A stretch of DNA of 63,570 nt, the filler included, from Bdellovibrionota bacterium (GTDB lineage: Bacteria > Bdellovibrionota > Bdellovibrionia > Bdellovibrionales > JAEYZS01): NCBI GenBank assembly GCA_963169515.1. It is 4 parts of 4 records of this genome, joined end to end, with 100 filler letters (N's around TTAATTAATTAA, not from the genome) between each part and the next. Parts side by side here need not be neighbours in the genome. Positions count along the whole stretch, not along the records: positions 49,475 to 56,473 come from CAUJEF010000029.1; 3 more parts are not named here. The stretch is one strand, 5' to 3'. The translations under genes were made by a program, and so were the position numbers. A model generated the notes under the pieces. The model did not search any database. It had not been told where the DNA came from and saw only the letters and a list, made by a program, of their open reading frames with translations. Positions 24,661-56,573 of this stretch are shown here, one piece after another (position 1 is the stretch's first letter; each line of letters opens with the position of its first letter).

Positions 24661-24760
24661 NNNNNNNNNNNNNNNNNNNNNNNNNNNNNNNNNNNNNNNN
24701 NNNNTTAATTAATTAANNNNNNNNNNNNNNNNNNNNNNNNNNNNNNNNNNNNNNNNNNNN
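24661..24760. other. Artificial contig linker (N run with TTAATTAATTAA)
   Basis: Six-frame stop spacer flanked by Ns. Confidence 0.99.
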
Positions 24761-49374: not shown

Positions 49375-49474
49375 NNNNNNNNNNNNNNNNNNNNNNNNNN
49401 NNNNNNNNNNNNNNNNNNTTAATTAATTAANNNNNNNNNNNNNNNNNNNNNNNNNNNNNNNNNNNNNNNNNNNN
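49375..49474. other. Artificial contig linker
   Basis: N run with TTAATTAATTAA. Confidence 0.99.
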
Positions 49475-49475
49475 T

Positions 49476-50378
49476 GGCTTTATAATTTCTATCTATGCAA
49501 TTTTTCAACACCTTACGGGAAAAGATTTTATTCGTAGCACAAACCGAGCAGTGACATATTTAGGTGAATATTCTGGGGGACTCAAGTTTTATAGGTCAGC
49601 TGGTTTTTTGAGTTCACCAATGACATTTGGAAATTCTTTTGGCCTGTTTGTTTCCGCTGTTGTGGGGTATTTGCTTTCACGAAGTATATTTCGAAATAAG
49701 CTTCTTGTCAGCGTAGCAATATTGGGTGGAATGGCTTTGTATGCAACATATACGCGGGGAGTTTGGTTTTCTTTTGTATGTTGCATATTAATAGCTGTGA
49801 TTATGCTTTTCCCTAAAAGAAAGGCGGCTTTATTGTCGGGGGCCGCTAGCGCTTTCGGCGTTCTAATATTTATTTTCTCTGCGGCTTTTCGGATGCGTAT
49901 ACTCGAGGTATTTGATTTCAACTACGCTAGCTTGATAAATAGACTTAATTTGTGGTCCGCCAATATAGCAATGTTTAAGGACTTCCCCTTGTTGGGAGTT
50001 GGATATGGTAAAAACGAAGACCTCGCGTTGACATATCTTGATCGATTAGCAATTAATACCCGTTTTACTGGCCATGCTCACAATACATTTATTCAGTTTT
50101 TATCGGGAACAGGTTTGGTCGGAACAGTTATTTATACTGCCATTTCGGTATTATTGCTTGTTGAGAACTATAAGCTTATGCGAGGGGGTGAACCCCATTC
50201 TCCGCGCACGGCGCTTTTTTTTGGGTTATTTATCGCTCAAATATTTCTTCATCTTAGCGGACTTACAGAGTGTAGCTTTAAAGACGCTGAAGTGACACAT
50301 TTTGCAGTTGTCATTTTTGCTTTGATTTTAGCGTCTAGATTAAAAAACAATCTAAGGCCAGCGTGTTGCGCCGCATAA
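49476..50378 (+). CDS. O-antigen ligase (WaaL/Wzy_C) family protein, 5' truncated
   Basis: Frame open from contig start; TYTRGVW, RLNLW, PLLGVG, HAHNTFIQ. Confidence 0.85.
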   Translation, partial: GFIISIYAIFQHLTGKDFIRSTNRAVTYLGEYSGGLKFYRSAGFLSSPMTFGNSFGLFVSAVVGYLLSRSIFRNKLLVSVAILGGMALYATYTRGVWFSFVCCILIAVIMLFPKRKAALLSGAASAFGVLIFIFSAAFRMRILEVFDFNYASLINRLNLWSANIAMFKDFPLLGVGYGKNEDLALTYLDRLAINTRFTGHAHNTFIQFLSGTGLVGTVIYTAISVLLLVENYKLMRGGEPHSPRTALFFGLFIAQIFLHLSGLTECSFKDAEVTHFAVVIFALILASRLKNNLRPACCAA

Positions 50379-50439: not shown

Positions 50440-51744
50440 ATGATGAAGCAAGTTTATGTGGCTTTGAGTGCAGATTTTATTCACGTTGGGCATTTAAATA
50501 TTTTGGACAAAGCGCGAGGGCTAGGAGAAGTCACGGTTGGTGCGCTTACAGATTCTGCTATTGCAACCTATAAACGTCTACCCCTCTTAACCCTTGAACA
50601 ACGAATGCTCATTTACTCCAATTTGAAAGGGGTTAAAAGCGCGATCCCACAAACCACGTTAGACTATACAGAGAATTTAGAAAAACTAAGGCCAGACTAC
50701 GTAGTGCATGGTGACGATTGGAAGTCTGGCCCGCAAAGTGAGATTCGCCAAAAAGTAATTGCAACACTGTCCAAATGGGATGGCCAGTTGATAGAAGTTC
50801 CGTACTCAACGGGAATCTCAGCATCCCAATTGTCAGCGCAAATCCGCAGCCATGGCGTAACGCCACAAAACAGACAATCAATGCTTCGTCGATTATTGAG
50901 CGCAAAACCAATAGTAAGAATTTTAGAGGTTCATAACGGCCTGACAGGCTTAATTGTTGAAAACACCATTTTAGAAAAAAATGGTGATCGCCTAGAGTTT
51001 GACGGTATGTGGGAGAGCAGCTTGACAGACTCAACGTCAAAGGGAAAGCCGGACACGTCTGCAGTTGATGTGTCTTCGCGAGTTTCAACAATTGACCAGA
51101 TTTTAGAAGTAACTACAAAGCCCATGATTGTGGATGGGGATAATGGCGGTCTTCCGGAACACTTTTGTTTTACCGTCCGTACTTTAGAACGCCTTGGCGT
51201 TTCTGCGGTAATTATTGAAGATAAGGTTGGGGCTAAAAAAAATTCTTTGTTTGGTACAGACGTCGATCAGACTCAAGACTCGATAGAAGAGTTTTCTGAT
51301 AAAATTTCAATGGGCAAAAAGGCCCAGGTAACAAAAGATTTTATGATTATTGCCCGTATTGAAAGTCTAATTTTGGGTAAAGGACAACGAGATGCAATTA
51401 AACGAGCTGAAAGTTACATTAACGCTGGTGCAGATGGAATAATGATCCACAGCTCTTCAAAAGACCCCAAAGAAGTTTTAGATTTTTGTGCTGAATATAA
51501 AGAAAAATTTTCAGGTGTACCGCTTGTTGTCGTGCCGTCGACCTATGCCCAGGTTACAGAGAAAGAATTGATAGAAGCCGGAGTCAAGATTGTTATTTAT
51601 GCAAATCATCTTATTAGGAGCGCTTTCCCGGCAATGACAAAAACCGCCGAATCTATATTGGAGCATGGTCGATGTTTAGAGGCTGGCGCAGCCTGCATGC
51701 CAATTAAACAAATTATAACTTTAATTCCAGAAACATTTCAATGA
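50440..51744 (+). CDS. pepM: Phosphoenolpyruvate mutase with N-terminal cytidylyltransferase domain
   Basis: HVGH CyTase motif, VHGDDW; PepM signature [19 protein letters not shown]. Confidence 0.95.
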
Positions 51745-51751
51745 GGCTGAA

Positions 51752-52873
51752 ATGATACCATGTTCTGATTTTGTGGATACGATTTTGGAACATGGGGTAC
51801 GATTTTTTGTAGGCGTCCCAGATTCATTGTTAAAAGATGTCTGTGCATACATCACAGATGAGATGCCTTCGGCAAATCATATTATAGCGGCCAATGAAGG
51901 AAATGCCATTGCGTTAGGCGCGGGATACCACCTTTCCACAGGTCAAATTCCATTGGTTTATATGCAAAATTCAGGGCTTGGAAATGCTGTTAATCCATTG
52001 ACATCTTTAGCTTCGAAAGATGTTTACAGCATCCCAATGATTTTGATGATTGGTTGGAGGGGTGAGCCTGGCGTTAAGGATGAACCCCAACATACCCAAA
52101 AGGGCCGTATTACGCCGGAGTTGTTAAAAGCCCTTGAAATTCCATATCATATTATTGGATCAGATAGTGATTTTCAAAAAATTATACCCGAGGCGATTCT
52201 TCAAGCGAAAGAAGAAAGCGCGCCCATTGTTTTTTTAATCAAAGCGGGCACATTCCAAAAATATAAATTAAAAAGGAACATTAGCTCGACAGCGACGTTA
52301 ACTCGCGAAGCTGCGATACAGCTTGTGAGTAATGAGTTGAAAGAAGACGACGTTGTTTTGGCAACAACGGGTAAAATATCGCGGGAGTTTTATGAACATA
52401 GGATCAAGAGGAGCGGGAAGTGTGATGATTTTTTGAATGTTGGATCGATGGGGCATGTTTCGCAAATAGCCTTGTCCGTTGCCTTGAACCAACCGGCAAA
52501 AAAAGTTTACTGCTTGGATGGGGATGGATCAGTGTTGATGCACATGGGGGGGCTTGCGATAATTGGACAAATGCAGCCCACAAACTTTAAACACATCATT
52601 TTAAATAATGCGGCTCATGATTCTGTTGGTGGCCAACCAACTGTGGGACACGAAATAGACATTCCCCAAATCGCGTTGGCGTGTCGTTATAAAAAAGTAT
52701 TCAAGGTGATAGACGAACAACAATTAAAAAATGCTTTACATGAGTTCTTAAAAACTGAAGGCCCCTGCTTGTTGGAAGTAATTGTTAAAACAGGCTCTAG
52801 GGATGATCTTGGTCGGCCGAAATCAACACCCATGGAAAATAAAATAGCCTTCATGGATAAGTTGGATGTCTAA
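51752..52873 (+). CDS. ppd: Phosphonopyruvate decarboxylase
   Basis: GVPDSLL, ANEGNA, MQNSGLGN, DEPQH, DGDGS ThDP motif. Confidence 0.95.
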   Translation: MIPCSDFVDTILEHGVRFFVGVPDSLLKDVCAYITDEMPSANHIIAANEGNAIALGAGYHLSTGQIPLVYMQNSGLGNAVNPLTSLASKDVYSIPMILMIGWRGEPGVKDEPQHTQKGRITPELLKALEIPYHIIGSDSDFQKIIPEAILQAKEESAPIVFLIKAGTFQKYKLKRNISSTATLTREAAIQLVSNELKEDDVVLATTGKISREFYEHRIKRSGKCDDFLNVGSMGHVSQIALSVALNQPAKKVYCLDGDGSVLMHMGGLAIIGQMQPTNFKHIILNNAAHDSVGGQPTVGHEIDIPQIALACRYKKVFKVIDEQQLKNALHEFLKTEGPCLLEVIVKTGSRDDLGRPKSTPMENKIAFMDKLDV

Positions 52874-54008
52874 GCAGGAAATATATTTGGGTAAGGACGG
52901 CTTAGGGGAGCTTTCTCGTCTACTTAAAAATTTAGAAGCAAAAAATATAGCTTGTTTTACGGGTAATAAATCGTTCAATACGCAATCTTTTAATAAGGAT
53001 TTTTTAACAATACTTCAAGACTACAAGACCTATTTTGTTCAAAACATTTCTCCAAATCCCTCGGCTGCAAACCTAGAGTTGTATCGAAAGGAAATGGCAA
53101 AAGGTGATTATGATGTTATGATTGCAATAGGAGGGGGGAGCGTTTTAGACTCTGCAAAAATCATTCATTTTTTTACTGAAACAAACCTAACCATAAAAGA
53201 TTTTTTTCAAAAAAATCTGACTTTAAATAAGCAAAATAAAAGGCCCCTCATTGCAATTCCAACGACCGCAGGCACGGGAAGTGAGTCAACACAGTTTGCC
53301 ACCTTCTATATTGCGAACAAAAAGTATTCATTGGACAATGAATGGACATTGCCCAGTCATGTTATTTTGGATCCGATTTTCGGAGAAAATATGCCTCGCT
53401 ATATTGCGGCGTGTACGGGAGCGGATGCATTGACACAAGCGGTGGAGTCTCACTGGAGTTGTAATTCAACAAAAGAATCCACAGAATATTCATTAAAAGC
53501 AATCTCATTGTTGTCGACACATTTGAGGAAAGCTGTTCTTGAAAATGACGGCCTAGCTAGGCTAAAAGTAATTGAAGCGGCGAATTTAGCGGGAAAGGCA
53601 ATTCAGATTACGCGCACAACGGCATGTCATGCGATCTCATATCCTATGACATCTTACTTTCACGTGTCTCATGGGCAGGCGGTATGCATAACATTGCCAT
53701 CTTTTTTACTGTTTAACTCTAATGTGGAAGAAAAGTCTGCAATGGATAGGCGTGGCGCTGGTTATACTCAACAAAGAATTGCAGAAATTTTGAGTGCTCT
53801 TCGGGCAAGTAGTGTTGAAGAGGGGAAAGATGTATTACAAAAATTAATTTCAAACTTAGGCTTGAAAACGAAGCTTAAAGATATAGGAATTCAAAAGAAA
53901 GATCTAGAATTGATTGTAGAAAATAGTTTTACACCAAGTAGGATGCAAAATAATCCTCGCGTTGTTACCTCTGAGGATGTGATGCATATTTTAACGGAGC
54001 TGATATAG
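52866..54008 (+). CDS. Iron-containing alcohol dehydrogenase, phosphonoacetaldehyde reductase type
   Basis: GGGSVLD, PTTAGTGSE, TTACHAISYP, HGQA, RMQNNP; directly after ppd. Confidence 0.88.
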   Translation: MSKQEIYLGKDGLGELSRLLKNLEAKNIACFTGNKSFNTQSFNKDFLTILQDYKTYFVQNISPNPSAANLELYRKEMAKGDYDVMIAIGGGSVLDSAKIIHFFTETNLTIKDFFQKNLTLNKQNKRPLIAIPTTAGTGSESTQFATFYIANKKYSLDNEWTLPSHVILDPIFGENMPRYIAACTGADALTQAVESHWSCNSTKESTEYSLKAISLLSTHLRKAVLENDGLARLKVIEAANLAGKAIQITRTTACHAISYPMTSYFHVSHGQAVCITLPSFLLFNSNVEEKSAMDRRGAGYTQQRIAEILSALRASSVEEGKDVLQKLISNLGLKTKLKDIGIQKKDLELIVENSFTPSRMQNNPRVVTSEDVMHILTELI

Positions 54009-54727
54009 TGAAAATGAAGCAAGCTATTATTGTGGCGGCCGGTAAATCCAGTCGTCTTTATCCTCGTACATTGGATTGTCCTAAGGGATTACTAGAGATT
54101 AATGGTAAGCCCATTTTACAAACATCCATTGATCAAATTAAGAAGTGTGGGATTGAGAAGGTTTCAATTGTCACTGGCTATATGCACGATGTATTTCCCA
54201 AAAGGTTAAAAAGCGTCGATCGTTTCATAGTAAATCCATTTTATGGACAGTGTAATAACTTAGGCTCACTGTGGATAGCAAAACCATACGTTTTAGAAGA
54301 GCCACTGCTTTATCTTCACGGCGACATTGTGTACGATATTAACATCCTAAAGCAATCTATAGAGAAAATGGAGAACTCGGATGCTGAACTGGGATTGGTA
54401 GTAGATTTTAAAAAATCAGATGATGAAGCTATGAAGGTTGAAATTGACCCAAATGGAAAGTTTATCTCATCTAGCAAGCAAATTCCTTTGGATAGAGCGG
54501 CAGGGGAATGGATAGGAATTGCACTGTTTCGCCGTCCGAGTCACATTTTTAAACAATTTGAAGAAGACCTTTTAGCCGGCGACTTACAAAATTACGATAC
54601 ATATTCTTTTACTAATTTTTCAAATAAAAACAATGAAGTTATTTGTATTTCAACAGAACAAAAAAATTGGATTGAAATTGATTTTGAATCGGATTTTATA
54701 CAAGCAAAAAAATTGTTTTCAAAATAG
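54008..54727 (+). CDS. LicC/PntC-like NTP-transferase (cytidylyltransferase)
   Basis: AAGKSSRL, PKGLL, HGDIV, WIEID. Confidence 0.85.
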   Translation: MKMKQAIIVAAGKSSRLYPRTLDCPKGLLEINGKPILQTSIDQIKKCGIEKVSIVTGYMHDVFPKRLKSVDRFIVNPFYGQCNNLGSLWIAKPYVLEEPLLYLHGDIVYDINILKQSIEKMENSDAELGLVVDFKKSDDEAMKVEIDPNGKFISSSKQIPLDRAAGEWIGIALFRRPSHIFKQFEEDLLAGDLQNYDTYSFTNFSNKNNEVICISTEQKNWIEIDFESDFIQAKKLFSK

Positions 54728-54736
54728 GGAAATTGT

Positions 54737-55474
54737 ATGGATAAGAAGTCGAAATTTGTAAGACGGAAATTTCATCAGGAGACATTTTTTCATAGCTATC
54801 TTGTGCGCCCTCTCGCCCAAGAGGTAGTCGCATTGGTTTGGAATACACCTATTACCCCCAATCAAATGACCATATTTCGAATCTTATTAAACATCTCATC
54901 GCTTTATTGCGTGGTTCGAGGCCAGTTCTTGTGGGCATTTTTATTATTTCAAACTCACGAGATCATTGATCATGCAGATGGAATGTTGGCCCGAATGAAA
55001 AACATTAAGTCTGATTTCGGCGCCACCATGGAGGTAACTTCAGATATGTTGTTTTCAGCGGCGTTCGGTTTTCTTGGGTTTTCCTACGCATGGTCTGGCT
55101 ATCGCTTGGAGTCTAATCATATTTACTTTGTATTTTATGGACTGATAGCAATGAGCTATTGTTACGGCTCATATTTCCGAAGATTTATTACAAAAAATGA
55201 AGGTGTGATTCATGCAAATCATGACGTCGAGGATTACATTCCTCTGTGGGACAAGACCCTGGGGCAAACCTTTCGAAATTGGGGCAAGACGGCGTTTACA
55301 TGGCAAAATCAATTCTTTTTATGGGGGGGGCTGCTTTACTATTATGTGAAGCCTTACGGGTACAATACTCTGATGATCGCTTTCGTTATAGTTCTTTTGC
55401 TCTTGCTGCTTTACTGGATTTTGCCGTTAATTCAAATCTACAAAAAAATATTTTCTAGAAAAGCGGCAACATGA
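54737..55474 (+). CDS. CDP-alcohol phosphotransferase family membrane protein
   Basis: ITPNQMT, DHADGMLAR...G. Confidence 0.85.
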   Translation: MDKKSKFVRRKFHQETFFHSYLVRPLAQEVVALVWNTPITPNQMTIFRILLNISSLYCVVRGQFLWAFLLFQTHEIIDHADGMLARMKNIKSDFGATMEVTSDMLFSAAFGFLGFSYAWSGYRLESNHIYFVFYGLIAMSYCYGSYFRRFITKNEGVIHANHDVEDYIPLWDKTLGQTFRNWGKTAFTWQNQFFLWGGLLYYYVKPYGYNTLMIAFVIVLLLLLLYWILPLIQIYKKIFSRKAAT

Positions 55475-56473
55475 AGGCAAAAAATCTAGTTTTTTTTTCA
55501 GCATATCCACATGAGGATTTGTTTAAACAACGAATTCATCATATGCTGCCTTTTTTGCTTAGGAAATTTCAACACATTACGCTGATTACTGCGGTTTCCT
55601 ATCAAAAAGAAAGAGTATCCAAGCTGTTTCGTAATCCAAAATACTTTTTTTCTCCACAGGTGGTGCGCGAAGAGAATTTAACTAAAATCACGGTATACCC
55701 AGTCTTTCCCAATCGTATCTCACTTCGGCTTCCCATTTTGTTTAAAATCAGCTCTTGGATAATACTTGTCTTCATACGCCGATACTTGCCAGAGAAATTT
55801 ATATTAGGAGTATGTCATCCTTATTTATATTTACGCGCTGTGAAAAATTTAAAATGCGAATACAAATTTTATGACTGTCCAGATTTATATGAGAGCTTTT
55901 CTTGGTCTCGGTCACAACTAAGCATTTCCCTTGAAAAAAAAATTGTCGATAATGTTGATATTTGCTTTGGGTCATCCAAATATATTTGTTCTGTAAAGTC
56001 TGAACAAATGAAAAAAGATTTTATACCGATACCGAATGCTGTCGATTTTAACTTGCATCAAAAAAATCTATCCTTGGGTTCTGTTAATGACCGGGTCAGA
56101 AAACAAGTAATATATGTAGGTGCAATTGCGGAATGGATGGATTTTGAATTGCTGGAAAAGTCTGTGTCGAAATTTAATGACACAGATTTTGTTGTTGTGG
56201 GGTTGGTTGCGCCAGCATGCAAAGCTCGTTTTCAAGGTATTTTAACTAAGCACAAGAACATTCGATTTCTTGGGACAAAAAAGTATGATGAAATACCGTT
56301 TTTGCTATCTCAGGCAGACGTTGGAATAATACCATTCTTGCCGTCAGAATTAATAAAAGGCGTTAGCCCCTTAAAACTTTTTGAATATGCGGCCCATGGT
56401 TTGCCGATCGTATCTGTTTATTGGGAAGAGATATCAGAGTATAAAAATCTTTTTCATATCTGTAAAGGACACG
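55471..56473 (+). CDS. GT-B glycosyltransferase, 3' truncated
   Basis: QRIHH, IPNAVD, YVGAIAEW, SPLKLFEYAAHGLPIVS. Confidence 0.85.
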
Positions 56474-56573
56474 NNNNNNNNNNNNNNNNNNNNNNNNNNN
56501 NNNNNNNNNNNNNNNNNTTAATTAATTAANNNNNNNNNNNNNNNNNNNNNNNNNNNNNNNNNNNNNNNNNNNN
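56474..56573. other. Artificial contig linker
   Basis: N run with TTAATTAATTAA. Confidence 0.99.

Follow-up and report, generated by a model that had tools for sequence, protein, structure and literature searches.

In the early steps of fosfomycin synthesis by Streptomyces wedmorensis, Fom1, Fom2 and FomC supply a fusion of a PF01467 cytidylyltransferase (CyTase) domain with a phosphoenolpyruvate mutase (PepM), a phosphonopyruvate decarboxylase (Ppd) and a PF00465 reductase, and Fom1 makes CMP-2-hydroxyethylphosphonate (CMP-HEP) (PMC6697681). Neighbourhoods that hold the mutase (Ppm), Ppd and a PhpC-like reductase, with no 2-aminoethylphosphonate (AEP) transaminase (AEPT), form the PhpC-type branch; this HEP class accounts for 8.5% of 434 neighbourhoods (Li & Horsman 2022, PMC8942020), and a HEP phosphonoglycan of Stackebrandtia nassauensis is cited in the same paper. 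Two further cluster types, Burkholderiales_CDP-OH (Group 1 phosphonolipids) and GCF 761 of Bacteriovorax stolpii, combine a phosphonate core with two cytidylyltransferases and a CDP-alcohol transferase (PMC8942020). In Prochlorococcus SB and SAR11, pepM lies beside Wzx and an O-oligosaccharyltransferase; phosphonate occurs in the protein fraction, and the authors argue for rare-variant selection (Acker et al. 2022, PMC8931226). The attachment of phosphonates to surfaces has been called enigmatic (PMC6697681). Here we describe a six-gene phosphonate cluster in a 63,570-nt stretch of DNA (the window) from a Bdellovibrionota bacterium (GCA_963169515.1). The cluster very probably makes CMP-HEP, and the reading we favour, with fair though far from full confidence, is that HEP decorates an O-antigen-like, Wzx/Wzy-type surface glycan by way of a horizontally acquired cassette.

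The window consists of four contigs (C23, C24, C29 and C33) joined by artificial N spacers. Gene order across the spacers is meaningless, so that genes beyond them are not neighbours of the C29 genes, and a physical link between C29 and the contigs on either side of it was rejected. The phosphonate cluster fills C29 (CAUJEF010000029.1), which is present whole and measures 6,999 bp. Its six open reading frames (Table 1) are spaced by +7, -8, -1, +9 and -4 nt, and all are intact and coupled except the last, a glycosyltransferase gene cut by the 3' end of the contig. The Pfam assignments, in order, are PF01467 with PF13714, the N- and C-terminal thiamine pyrophosphate (TPP) enzyme domains, iron-type alcohol dehydrogenase (ADH), PF12804/PF00483, PF01066, and PF13692/PF00534. 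All six genes named by the original prediction, which was made from the sequence, were present where it had placed them and in the families it had given. The host genome comprises 2.38 Mb in 173 pieces (96.5% complete, 0.02% contaminated), and a predatory life is inferred for the organism from its phylum only. A TPR protein encoded on another contig of the window has its matches in protein clusters that are commonest in the Bdellovibrionota (the top five of ten rows).

The first gene product resembles Fom1 in its architecture. It scores 391.9 against TIGR02320 (cut-off 319.55), carries the motif EDKx5NS ([10 protein letters not shown], starting at residue 260), and has in its N-terminal PF01467 domain the HxGH signature, as HVGH at residue 15. 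The best PDB match of the first 136 residues is 5X3D (53% identity; E value 6.8e-49), whose title describes the HEP-CMP-bound CyTase of Fom1; the single-sequence model of this domain was poor (pLDDT 42) and served only to retrieve that title and identity. In a PepM tree of 108 rows (quick-mode IQ-TREE, no bootstraps, long branches flagged), the protein falls inside a 90-row CyTase-PepM clade (SH-aLRT 99), with six PrpB-like rows set apart (100); it is thus separate from the non-mutases of the isocitrate lyase family, a placement for which the original prediction had called. Ppd scores 473.4 against TIGR03297 (cut-off 312.5) and contains the TPP motif DGDG...NN. PepM and Ppd are accordingly read as intact equivalogs, with the C-terminal domain of the fusion predicted to convert phosphoenolpyruvate to phosphonopyruvate.

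The PF00465 dehydrogenase adjoins Ppm and Ppd, and its best PDB match is 6JKO, the sulfoacetaldehyde reductase BkTauF. The metal ligands D187, Q191, H255 and H269 correspond to D192, Q196, H261 and H275 of BkTauF, the unusual Gln ligand being common to both, and T251 and Y259 align with T257 and F265; two of the three substrate-site residues are shared (ligand and substrate-site residues of BkTauF from PMC6616044). From this close likeness the enzyme is predicted to reduce phosphonoacetaldehyde to HEP, and the fused PF01467 domain, likewise from its closeness to Fom1, to form CMP-HEP from HEP and CTP.

An AEP transaminase was sought in the whole 96.5%-complete genome with TIGR03301, which gave four weak matches, none of them over the cut-off. 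Three are NifS/SufS-like and read as cysteine desulfurase-like; the fourth is a class-V aminotransferase truncated at the end of contig C146, scoring 104 for BhcA and 54 for AepZ. Synthesis of HEP and CMP-HEP by the trio and its fused CyTase is very probable, because PepM and Ppd exceed their cut-offs, the CyTase domain is Fom1-like, the metal ligands of the ADH are retained and no AEP transaminase passes its cut-off. On all three counts, namely the PepM-Ppd-ADH route, activation with CMP and the missing transaminase, the original prediction held.

It is very improbable that the product is something other than HEP (AEP formed through an unlinked transaminase, or methylphosphonate) or that the cassette is silent or its CDP-alcohol transferase inactive. 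A score of the ADH below its equivalog cut-off, the truncated aminotransferase on C146 in a genome of so many pieces, the position in the PepM tree of a sister, L034, that belongs to an AEPT-type cluster, and the departure of the transferase from a motif that has been called universal would all fit such an outcome. Against it stand the BhcA-like score of the C146 fragment, the intact and coupled frames, the conservation of the departing residue throughout the transferase subfamily, and a second cytidylyltransferase that is without the amine-binding Glu. In addition, C29, the overlapping contig C35 and a glycan block on contig C7 (both described below) hold no otherwise unassigned gene that could be a dioxygenase; no MpnS was recognised, no search having been aimed at MpnS or HEPD.

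The second cytidylyltransferase (PF12804) has as its best PDB matches 6PD1, the PntC structure, and then LicC (1JYK). It shares with PntC of Treponema denticola (6PD1/6PD2) and LicC the GxxxR...PK signature and the equivalents of Arg15, Lys25, Lys153 and the metal-binding Asp residues (Rice et al. 2019, PMC6697681), but has no fused transaminase, an Asp for Glu196, and a His for Glu104, the amine-binding residue; this His is invariant in 24 of 24 aligned homologues. As PntC enzymes of the AEP type have acidic residues for the AEP amine at both positions, the enzyme is probably PntC-like in its working yet no member of that type. Among the loci retrieved, the position of Glu104 is acidic in all eight readable stand-alone enzymes of AEP-type loci (six of them close kin) and His or Tyr in all seven higher-scoring stand-alone enzymes of ADH-type loci. 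Two low-scoring matches have Asn there, four more could not be read, and six PepM-fused domains of AEP loci have Tyr as well. The pattern gives a hint, no more, of a non-amine substrate. A search of plasmids with the PF12804 protein returned only 11 distant matches.

The fifth gene product, which we designate AP1, is by its Pfam domain (PF01066) and modelled fold a CDP-alcohol phosphotransferase, and is the candidate HEP transferase. Its motif, D78-x2-D81-G-x2-A-R-x8-G95-x3-E99-x3-D103, agrees with the family motif D-x2-DG-x2-AR-x7-12-G-x3-D-x3-D at seven of eight positions, the third Asp being replaced by Glu. The family motif has been called universally conserved (10.1101/2024.05.09.593427), and in PgsA1 the third Asp bridges the metals (PMC6506517). 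Among 19 aligned AP1 members the third Asp is Glu in 18 and Glu75 is invariant; this conservation argues against decay. In 131 more distant matches the position is Asp in 97 and Glu in 13, with no match in 21. Close relatives are few: seven representatives at E values of 1e-30 or below among 1.84 billion proteins. The AlphaFold2 model of AP1 (pLDDT 90.5) was matched by Foldseek best to AF2299 (4O6M), then to IPCT-DIPPS (4MND) and the phosphatidylinositol-phosphate synthases. With these and PgsA1 it shares the six-helix fold (TM-score ~0.6) and the D1, D2, G, A, R, G and D4 positions; it differs from them in the Glu at the third Asp, the invariant Glu75, an N-terminal RRKFRQET-type motif and its linkage to a flippase. 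In a transferase tree built with the same settings as that of PepM, AP1 and a second CDP-alcohol transferase of the host, AP2 (contig C7), each form a clade of their own.

An initial scan of metagenomes that used only AP1 retrieved no relatives; a later one yielded nine AP1 loci. Phosphonate genes are present in five (L171, L172, L173, L176 and L179). In three of the nine, a stand-alone TagD-like PF01467 enzyme stands directly upstream of AP1, and one locus is too short to tell; the best model for these enzymes is TIGR01518, at 94-99 bits (cut-off 165). Three loci (L174, L177 and L178) are free of PepM, a status that applies at the level of the locus only. The same type of flippase lies within one to three genes of AP1 in six of the nine, the other three ending within ~0.4 kb of AP1. 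Six also contain a fusion of an alpha/alpha-toroid with an S-adenosylmethionine-dependent methyltransferase, the PepM-free cassettes L177 and L178 included. Directly after AP1, loci L167 and L171-L174 have the gene of a second CDP-alcohol transferase, whereas L175 and L176 have a LicD gene. In L177, an APH-family kinase and a thymidylate-kinase-like gene follow AP1 (L177:10672-12445), hinting at another donor in that cassette. Elsewhere in the phylum, a full-length AP1 match was found in only one of 400 other genomes (G331), where AP1 adjoins the same flippase and a second transferase, and the HEP trio stands with the toroid fusion on another contig. The host genome carries the same flippase type, with AP2, at the end of C7. 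We tentatively propose, as a possibility somewhat short of probable, that AP1 represents an undescribed subfamily of CDP-alcohol phosphotransferases, marked by the Asp-to-Glu change, which with its own flippase would add small phospho- or phosphono-alcohols to lipid-linked glycans, the cassette exchanging its donor between a TagD-like cytidylyltransferase and the CyTase-PepM/Ppd/ADH trio.

That the cluster is embedded in a surface-glycan locus, as the original prediction had it, is borne out beyond the window. Within it, the setting consists only of a truncated ligase and the glycosyltransferase. At its 3' end, C29 shares 17 nt with the reverse strand of C35, and this is its sole overlap of at least 8 nt; overlaps of 8-9 nt between contig ends are common in this genome, but from 16 nt upwards any given length is represented by just one or two pairs. 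The glycosyltransferase frame closes on C35, 39 codons past the end of C29, and is followed there by the toroid-methyltransferase fusion, for which there is no close solved structure, WecB and a CapD/PglF-like dehydratase. A public contig of 46,172 bp, from which this DNA may derive, covers C29 with no difference and reaches 11.5 kb upstream. Neither the start of C29 nor the end of C7 overlaps any contig by at least 8 nt, and a search of the assembly did not find the N-terminus of the ligase. The ligase is the only PF04932 match of the genome, which also contains LpxC. Ligase, GT4 glycosyltransferase, WecB and CapD-like gene, some of the features expected of a Wzx/Wzy locus, are thus contiguous, and the flippases lie on C7, a separate contig. 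Contamination of the bin was considered and is unlikely: orthologues of the ligase occur in three of six same-family genomes, where they border different glycan clusters without PepM, the tetranucleotide distance of C29 ranks 31st of 246 fragments, and its GC content is 39.2% against a mean of 42.5%.

With these flanks of ligase, GT4, WecB and CDP-alcohol transferase, and no later fosfomycin genes seen in the cluster, CMP-HEP is probably the donor for an envelope decoration and the locus differs in this from the fosfomycin pathway. In the mechanism suggested by gene context, AP1, possibly together with AP2, would take the phosphonyl group of CMP-HEP and place it on a hydroxyl of an undecaprenyl-diphosphate-linked repeat unit at the inner membrane face; the decorated unit would be exported by the co-occurring flippase, and the upstream ligase would attach the chain either to lipid A-core or to a protein, giving an O-antigen or an O-linked protein glycan. 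In favour of this reading, among the best 80 PepM loci TagF-like genes are present in 24, LicD-like genes in 16 and CDP-alcohol transferases in seven, and none of these seven has a TagF-like or LicD-like gene, an exclusivity with P ~0.008 if loci are independent. A precedent is the position of pepM next to Wzx and an O-oligosaccharyltransferase gene in Prochlorococcus SB and SAR11 (PMC8931226).

Several observations weigh against glycan decoration by this route. We know of no CDP-alcohol phosphotransferase that acts on a lipid-linked glycan, and the solved relatives of AP1 are all lipid synthases, soluble-polyol synthases or the unassigned AF2299. The C7 block is not physically linked to C29, no end overlap joining the two. 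As three of nine AP1 loci are without PepM, AP1 is not phosphonate-specific. The exclusivity among the 80 PepM loci is inflated by kinship and truncated loci; for TagF-like genes alone it is not significant (P ~0.07), and L175 and L176, which pair AP1 with LicD, break the rule. The closest structural relative of the ADH is a sulfoacetaldehyde reductase, and its score against the best NCBIfam model, TIGR03405 (PsrA), is 187 for a cut-off of 423.7; since PhpC enzymes are very divergent (PMC13576164), the latter lowers only membership in PsrA. Finally, the genome encodes a likely ceramide pathway. Its Spt-like gene, for which NF047600 is the best model (443.7 bits; cut-off 640), lies on C145 directly behind a GNAT gene, which we take to be CerS-like, and suggests ceramide synthesis in the host lineage.

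This last point bears on a rival reading, in which AP1 is a Kennedy-type synthase joining HEP from CMP-HEP to ceramide or diacylglycerol, to give a hydroxy counterpart of the amino-phosphonate sphingolipid of B. stolpii, either as end product or as a flipped lipid-linked donor. Most characterised CDP-alcohol phosphotransferases make lipids, and two cytidylyltransferases with phospholipid genes constitute the Burkholderiales_CDP-OH layout of predicted phosphonolipid makers (PMC8942020). The Spt/GNAT pair, however, is unlinked to the cluster and conserved in all three tested relatives, which are without PepM; AP1 is accompanied by a flippase, glycosyltransferases and WecB, not by lipid genes; and it is only ~30% identical to the transferases of the Bdellovibrionota AEP clusters, which belong to another clade. 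Gene context (flippase, glycosyltransferases, WecB, CapD-like gene and ligase) favours a glycan over a lipid acceptor, and we regard the lipid as unlikely. The earlier proposal that HEP is attached to an envelope glycan or lipid is thereby narrowed towards the glycan, its CMP-HEP donor remaining likely. A HEP-ceramide in a Bdellovibrio-group bacterium would be the more striking variant, and is quite improbable.

AP1 might alternatively serve in a relay, using a small polyol or sugar phosphate as acceptor for HEP in a DIPPS-like manner, or moving some other phospho-alcohol supplied by the second cytidylyltransferase, with AP2 or LicD making the bond to the glycan; HEP may be modified further, for example methylated by the toroid-methyltransferase fusion. 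The nearest structures to AP1, AF2299 and IPCT-DIPPS, the succession of AP1 by a second transferase or LicD as if these were interchangeable, and the presence in the host of two cytidylyltransferases and two CDP-alcohol transferases all point this way. None of the nine metagenome AP1 loci has a PF12804 match, which indicates that a second activation step is not general, and the toroid fusion occurs in two PepM-free cassettes. We consider such a division of labour decidedly unlikely, and retain decoration of the glycan by AP1 as the preferred reading.

Table 1. Positions of the genes of contig C29, the spacers around it and associated features. Plain coordinates are window positions; G000 is the host genome, and L numbers denote extracted loci.
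Feature	Position	Strand	Remarks
O-antigen ligase / O-oligosaccharyltransferase-like membrane protein	49475..50378	+	PF04932, 77.6 bits; 5'-truncated by contig start, ~120 aa missing
Fom1-like fusion, N-terminal PF01467 cytidylyltransferase and C-terminal PEP mutase	50440..51744	+	TIGR02320, HVGH, 5X3D match
Phosphonopyruvate decarboxylase (to phosphonoacetaldehyde)	51752..52873	+	TIGR03297, TPP motif
Metal-dependent (family III) alcohol dehydrogenase, predicted phosphonoacetaldehyde reductase (to HEP)	52866..54008	+	PF00465, BkTauF likeness
Second, PntC/LicC-like cytidylyltransferase (PF12804), accessory	54008..54727	+	PDB matches 6PD1, then LicC 1JYK
CDP-alcohol phosphotransferase, subfamily AP1, candidate HEP transferase	54737..55474	+	PF01066, AlphaFold2 model, recurrent cassette
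GT4/TuaH-like glycosyltransferase	55471..56473	+	PF13692, PF00534; 3'-truncated in window, completed on C35
Artificial N spacers, non-biological	24661-24760; 49375-49474 (C24/C29); 56474-56573 (C29/C33)	none
Alpha/alpha-toroid and SAM methyltransferase fusion, 600 aa	G000:C35:4212-6014 (L180, - strand)		Recurs in glycan cassettes with and without PepM
Low-GC (38%) glycan block after tRNA-Val	G000:C7:91293-100273 (L150:5294-14274)		Two adjacent flippase-like genes, AP2, WecB, truncated membrane protein
Spt-like gene directly behind GNAT	G000:C145:11631-14340 (L149:3632-6341, - strand)		Kept in three same-family genomes and one distant phylum member

The cluster conforms to the PhpC-type class in having Ppm, Ppd and a PhpC-like enzyme with no AEPT, and the trio is common and already known; by itself it teaches nothing new. 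PepM relatives number at least 596 confirmed among 601 stretches of GTDB genomes. In the best 80 (60-67% identical), which span many bacterial phyla and archaea, Ppd occurs in 75, ADH in 72 and an AEP transaminase in two. Long fusions with a YidC domain (PF02096) were noted beside HEP modules in nine of these 80 loci (L045:14833-18213 and eight others), all nine of which also have a TagF-like gene, and in L142:11950-14499. Within the order of the host, PepM exceeds its cut-off in only three of 301 genomes and in none of six same-family relatives. Ppd matches were found in 36 of 401 genomes of the phylum, 21 of them in one family.

Seven of 20 fetched Bdellovibrionota loci (L135-L137, L139, L141, L145 and L148) combine an NTP-transferase, a CDP-alcohol transferase, PepM and Ppd with an AEP transaminase, in a layout like that of GCF 761, and share with the cluster the order of NTP-transferase followed by CDP-alcohol transferase. 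In contrast to the B. stolpii type, marked by an AEPT, a PF12804-fused Ppm and an orthologous transferase, the cluster has an ADH in place of the transaminase, a PepM whose fusion partner is PF01467 and not PF12804, a His for the acidic residue of the cytidylyltransferase, and a glycan-locus context, and it falls outside GCF 761. PepM and the CDP-alcohol transferase both belong to separate clades, in keeping with the earlier view that a HEP conjugate would differ in chemistry from the B. stolpii-type amino-phosphonate; judged by sequence, the cassette is unrelated to the known sphingophosphonolipid cluster type. Three other loci stood out. In genome G511, of the same order, a stand-alone PepM of divergent sequence precedes a 740-aa gene and an aminotransferase of the BioF/Spt-like kind, 33% identical to the C145 protein (L192:261-4928); this is a different type of phosphonate cluster. 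L144 and L146 (genomes G325 and G383) hold long-branch PepM-like genes with Ppd, one of them fused within a 734-aa reading frame and the other having EDQ for EDK in its motif, in layouts that match neither the AEP nor the HEP type.

In the PepM tree, the window protein stands beside a Spirochaetaceae sequence, apart from the Bdellovibrionota AEP clade, and the sequences closest to it come from phyla unrelated to that of the host. This placement, together with the rarity of PepM in the order, argues that the cluster is not a general predator trait; a predator-specific adaptation, which the original prediction had entertained, was rejected on its distribution. The data fit an imported cassette, a rare and horizontally moved serotype trait. 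The patchy, horizontally moved, island-like low-GC setting is shared with the Prochlorococcus SB and SAR11 clusters (PMC8931226), from which the locus differs in its host phylum and in having the AP1 subfamily as the candidate attaching enzyme.

Among minor features of the window, promoters were predicted at chance level (16 against 17.7 +/- 3.9 expected) and terminators at 10 against 6.3 +/- 2.5 expected, Rfam had no match in the window, and the glycosyltransferase scored 84.4 against NF047676, under the cut-off. The last 108 nt of C24 (49267-49374), at the end of a subtilase gene, match contig C155 at 94%, so that the break in the assembly at this point is probably due to a paralogue or repeat.

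A literature search, covering papers outside subscription and judging most related papers by title or abstract, found none on this cassette or on HEP, a CDP-alcohol transferase and pepM together, and none joining CDP-alcohol phosphatidyltransferase, glycerol-3-phosphate cytidylyltransferase, flippase and polysaccharide. The PhpC-type neighbourhoods of Fig. S1c of PMC8942020 may already include a family with HEP and a transferase. The specific new element is the AP1 subfamily, not the HEP trio. If the proposal for AP1 is true, the subfamily would join the TagF-like and LicD-like enzymes as a third way of attaching phosphonates to bacterial glycans. The cassette supplies a concrete, small and well-modelled membrane enzyme with its donor, AP1 and CMP-HEP, and the PepM-free sister cassettes are natural controls. 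The Bdellovibrionota as a phylum hold two or more phosphonate systems that are unrelated to each other: an AEP type found across a clade, and HEP types that are imported and scattered. The HEP system here is likely to serve as a rare variant of the cell surface that counters phage or grazers rather than as a device of predation.

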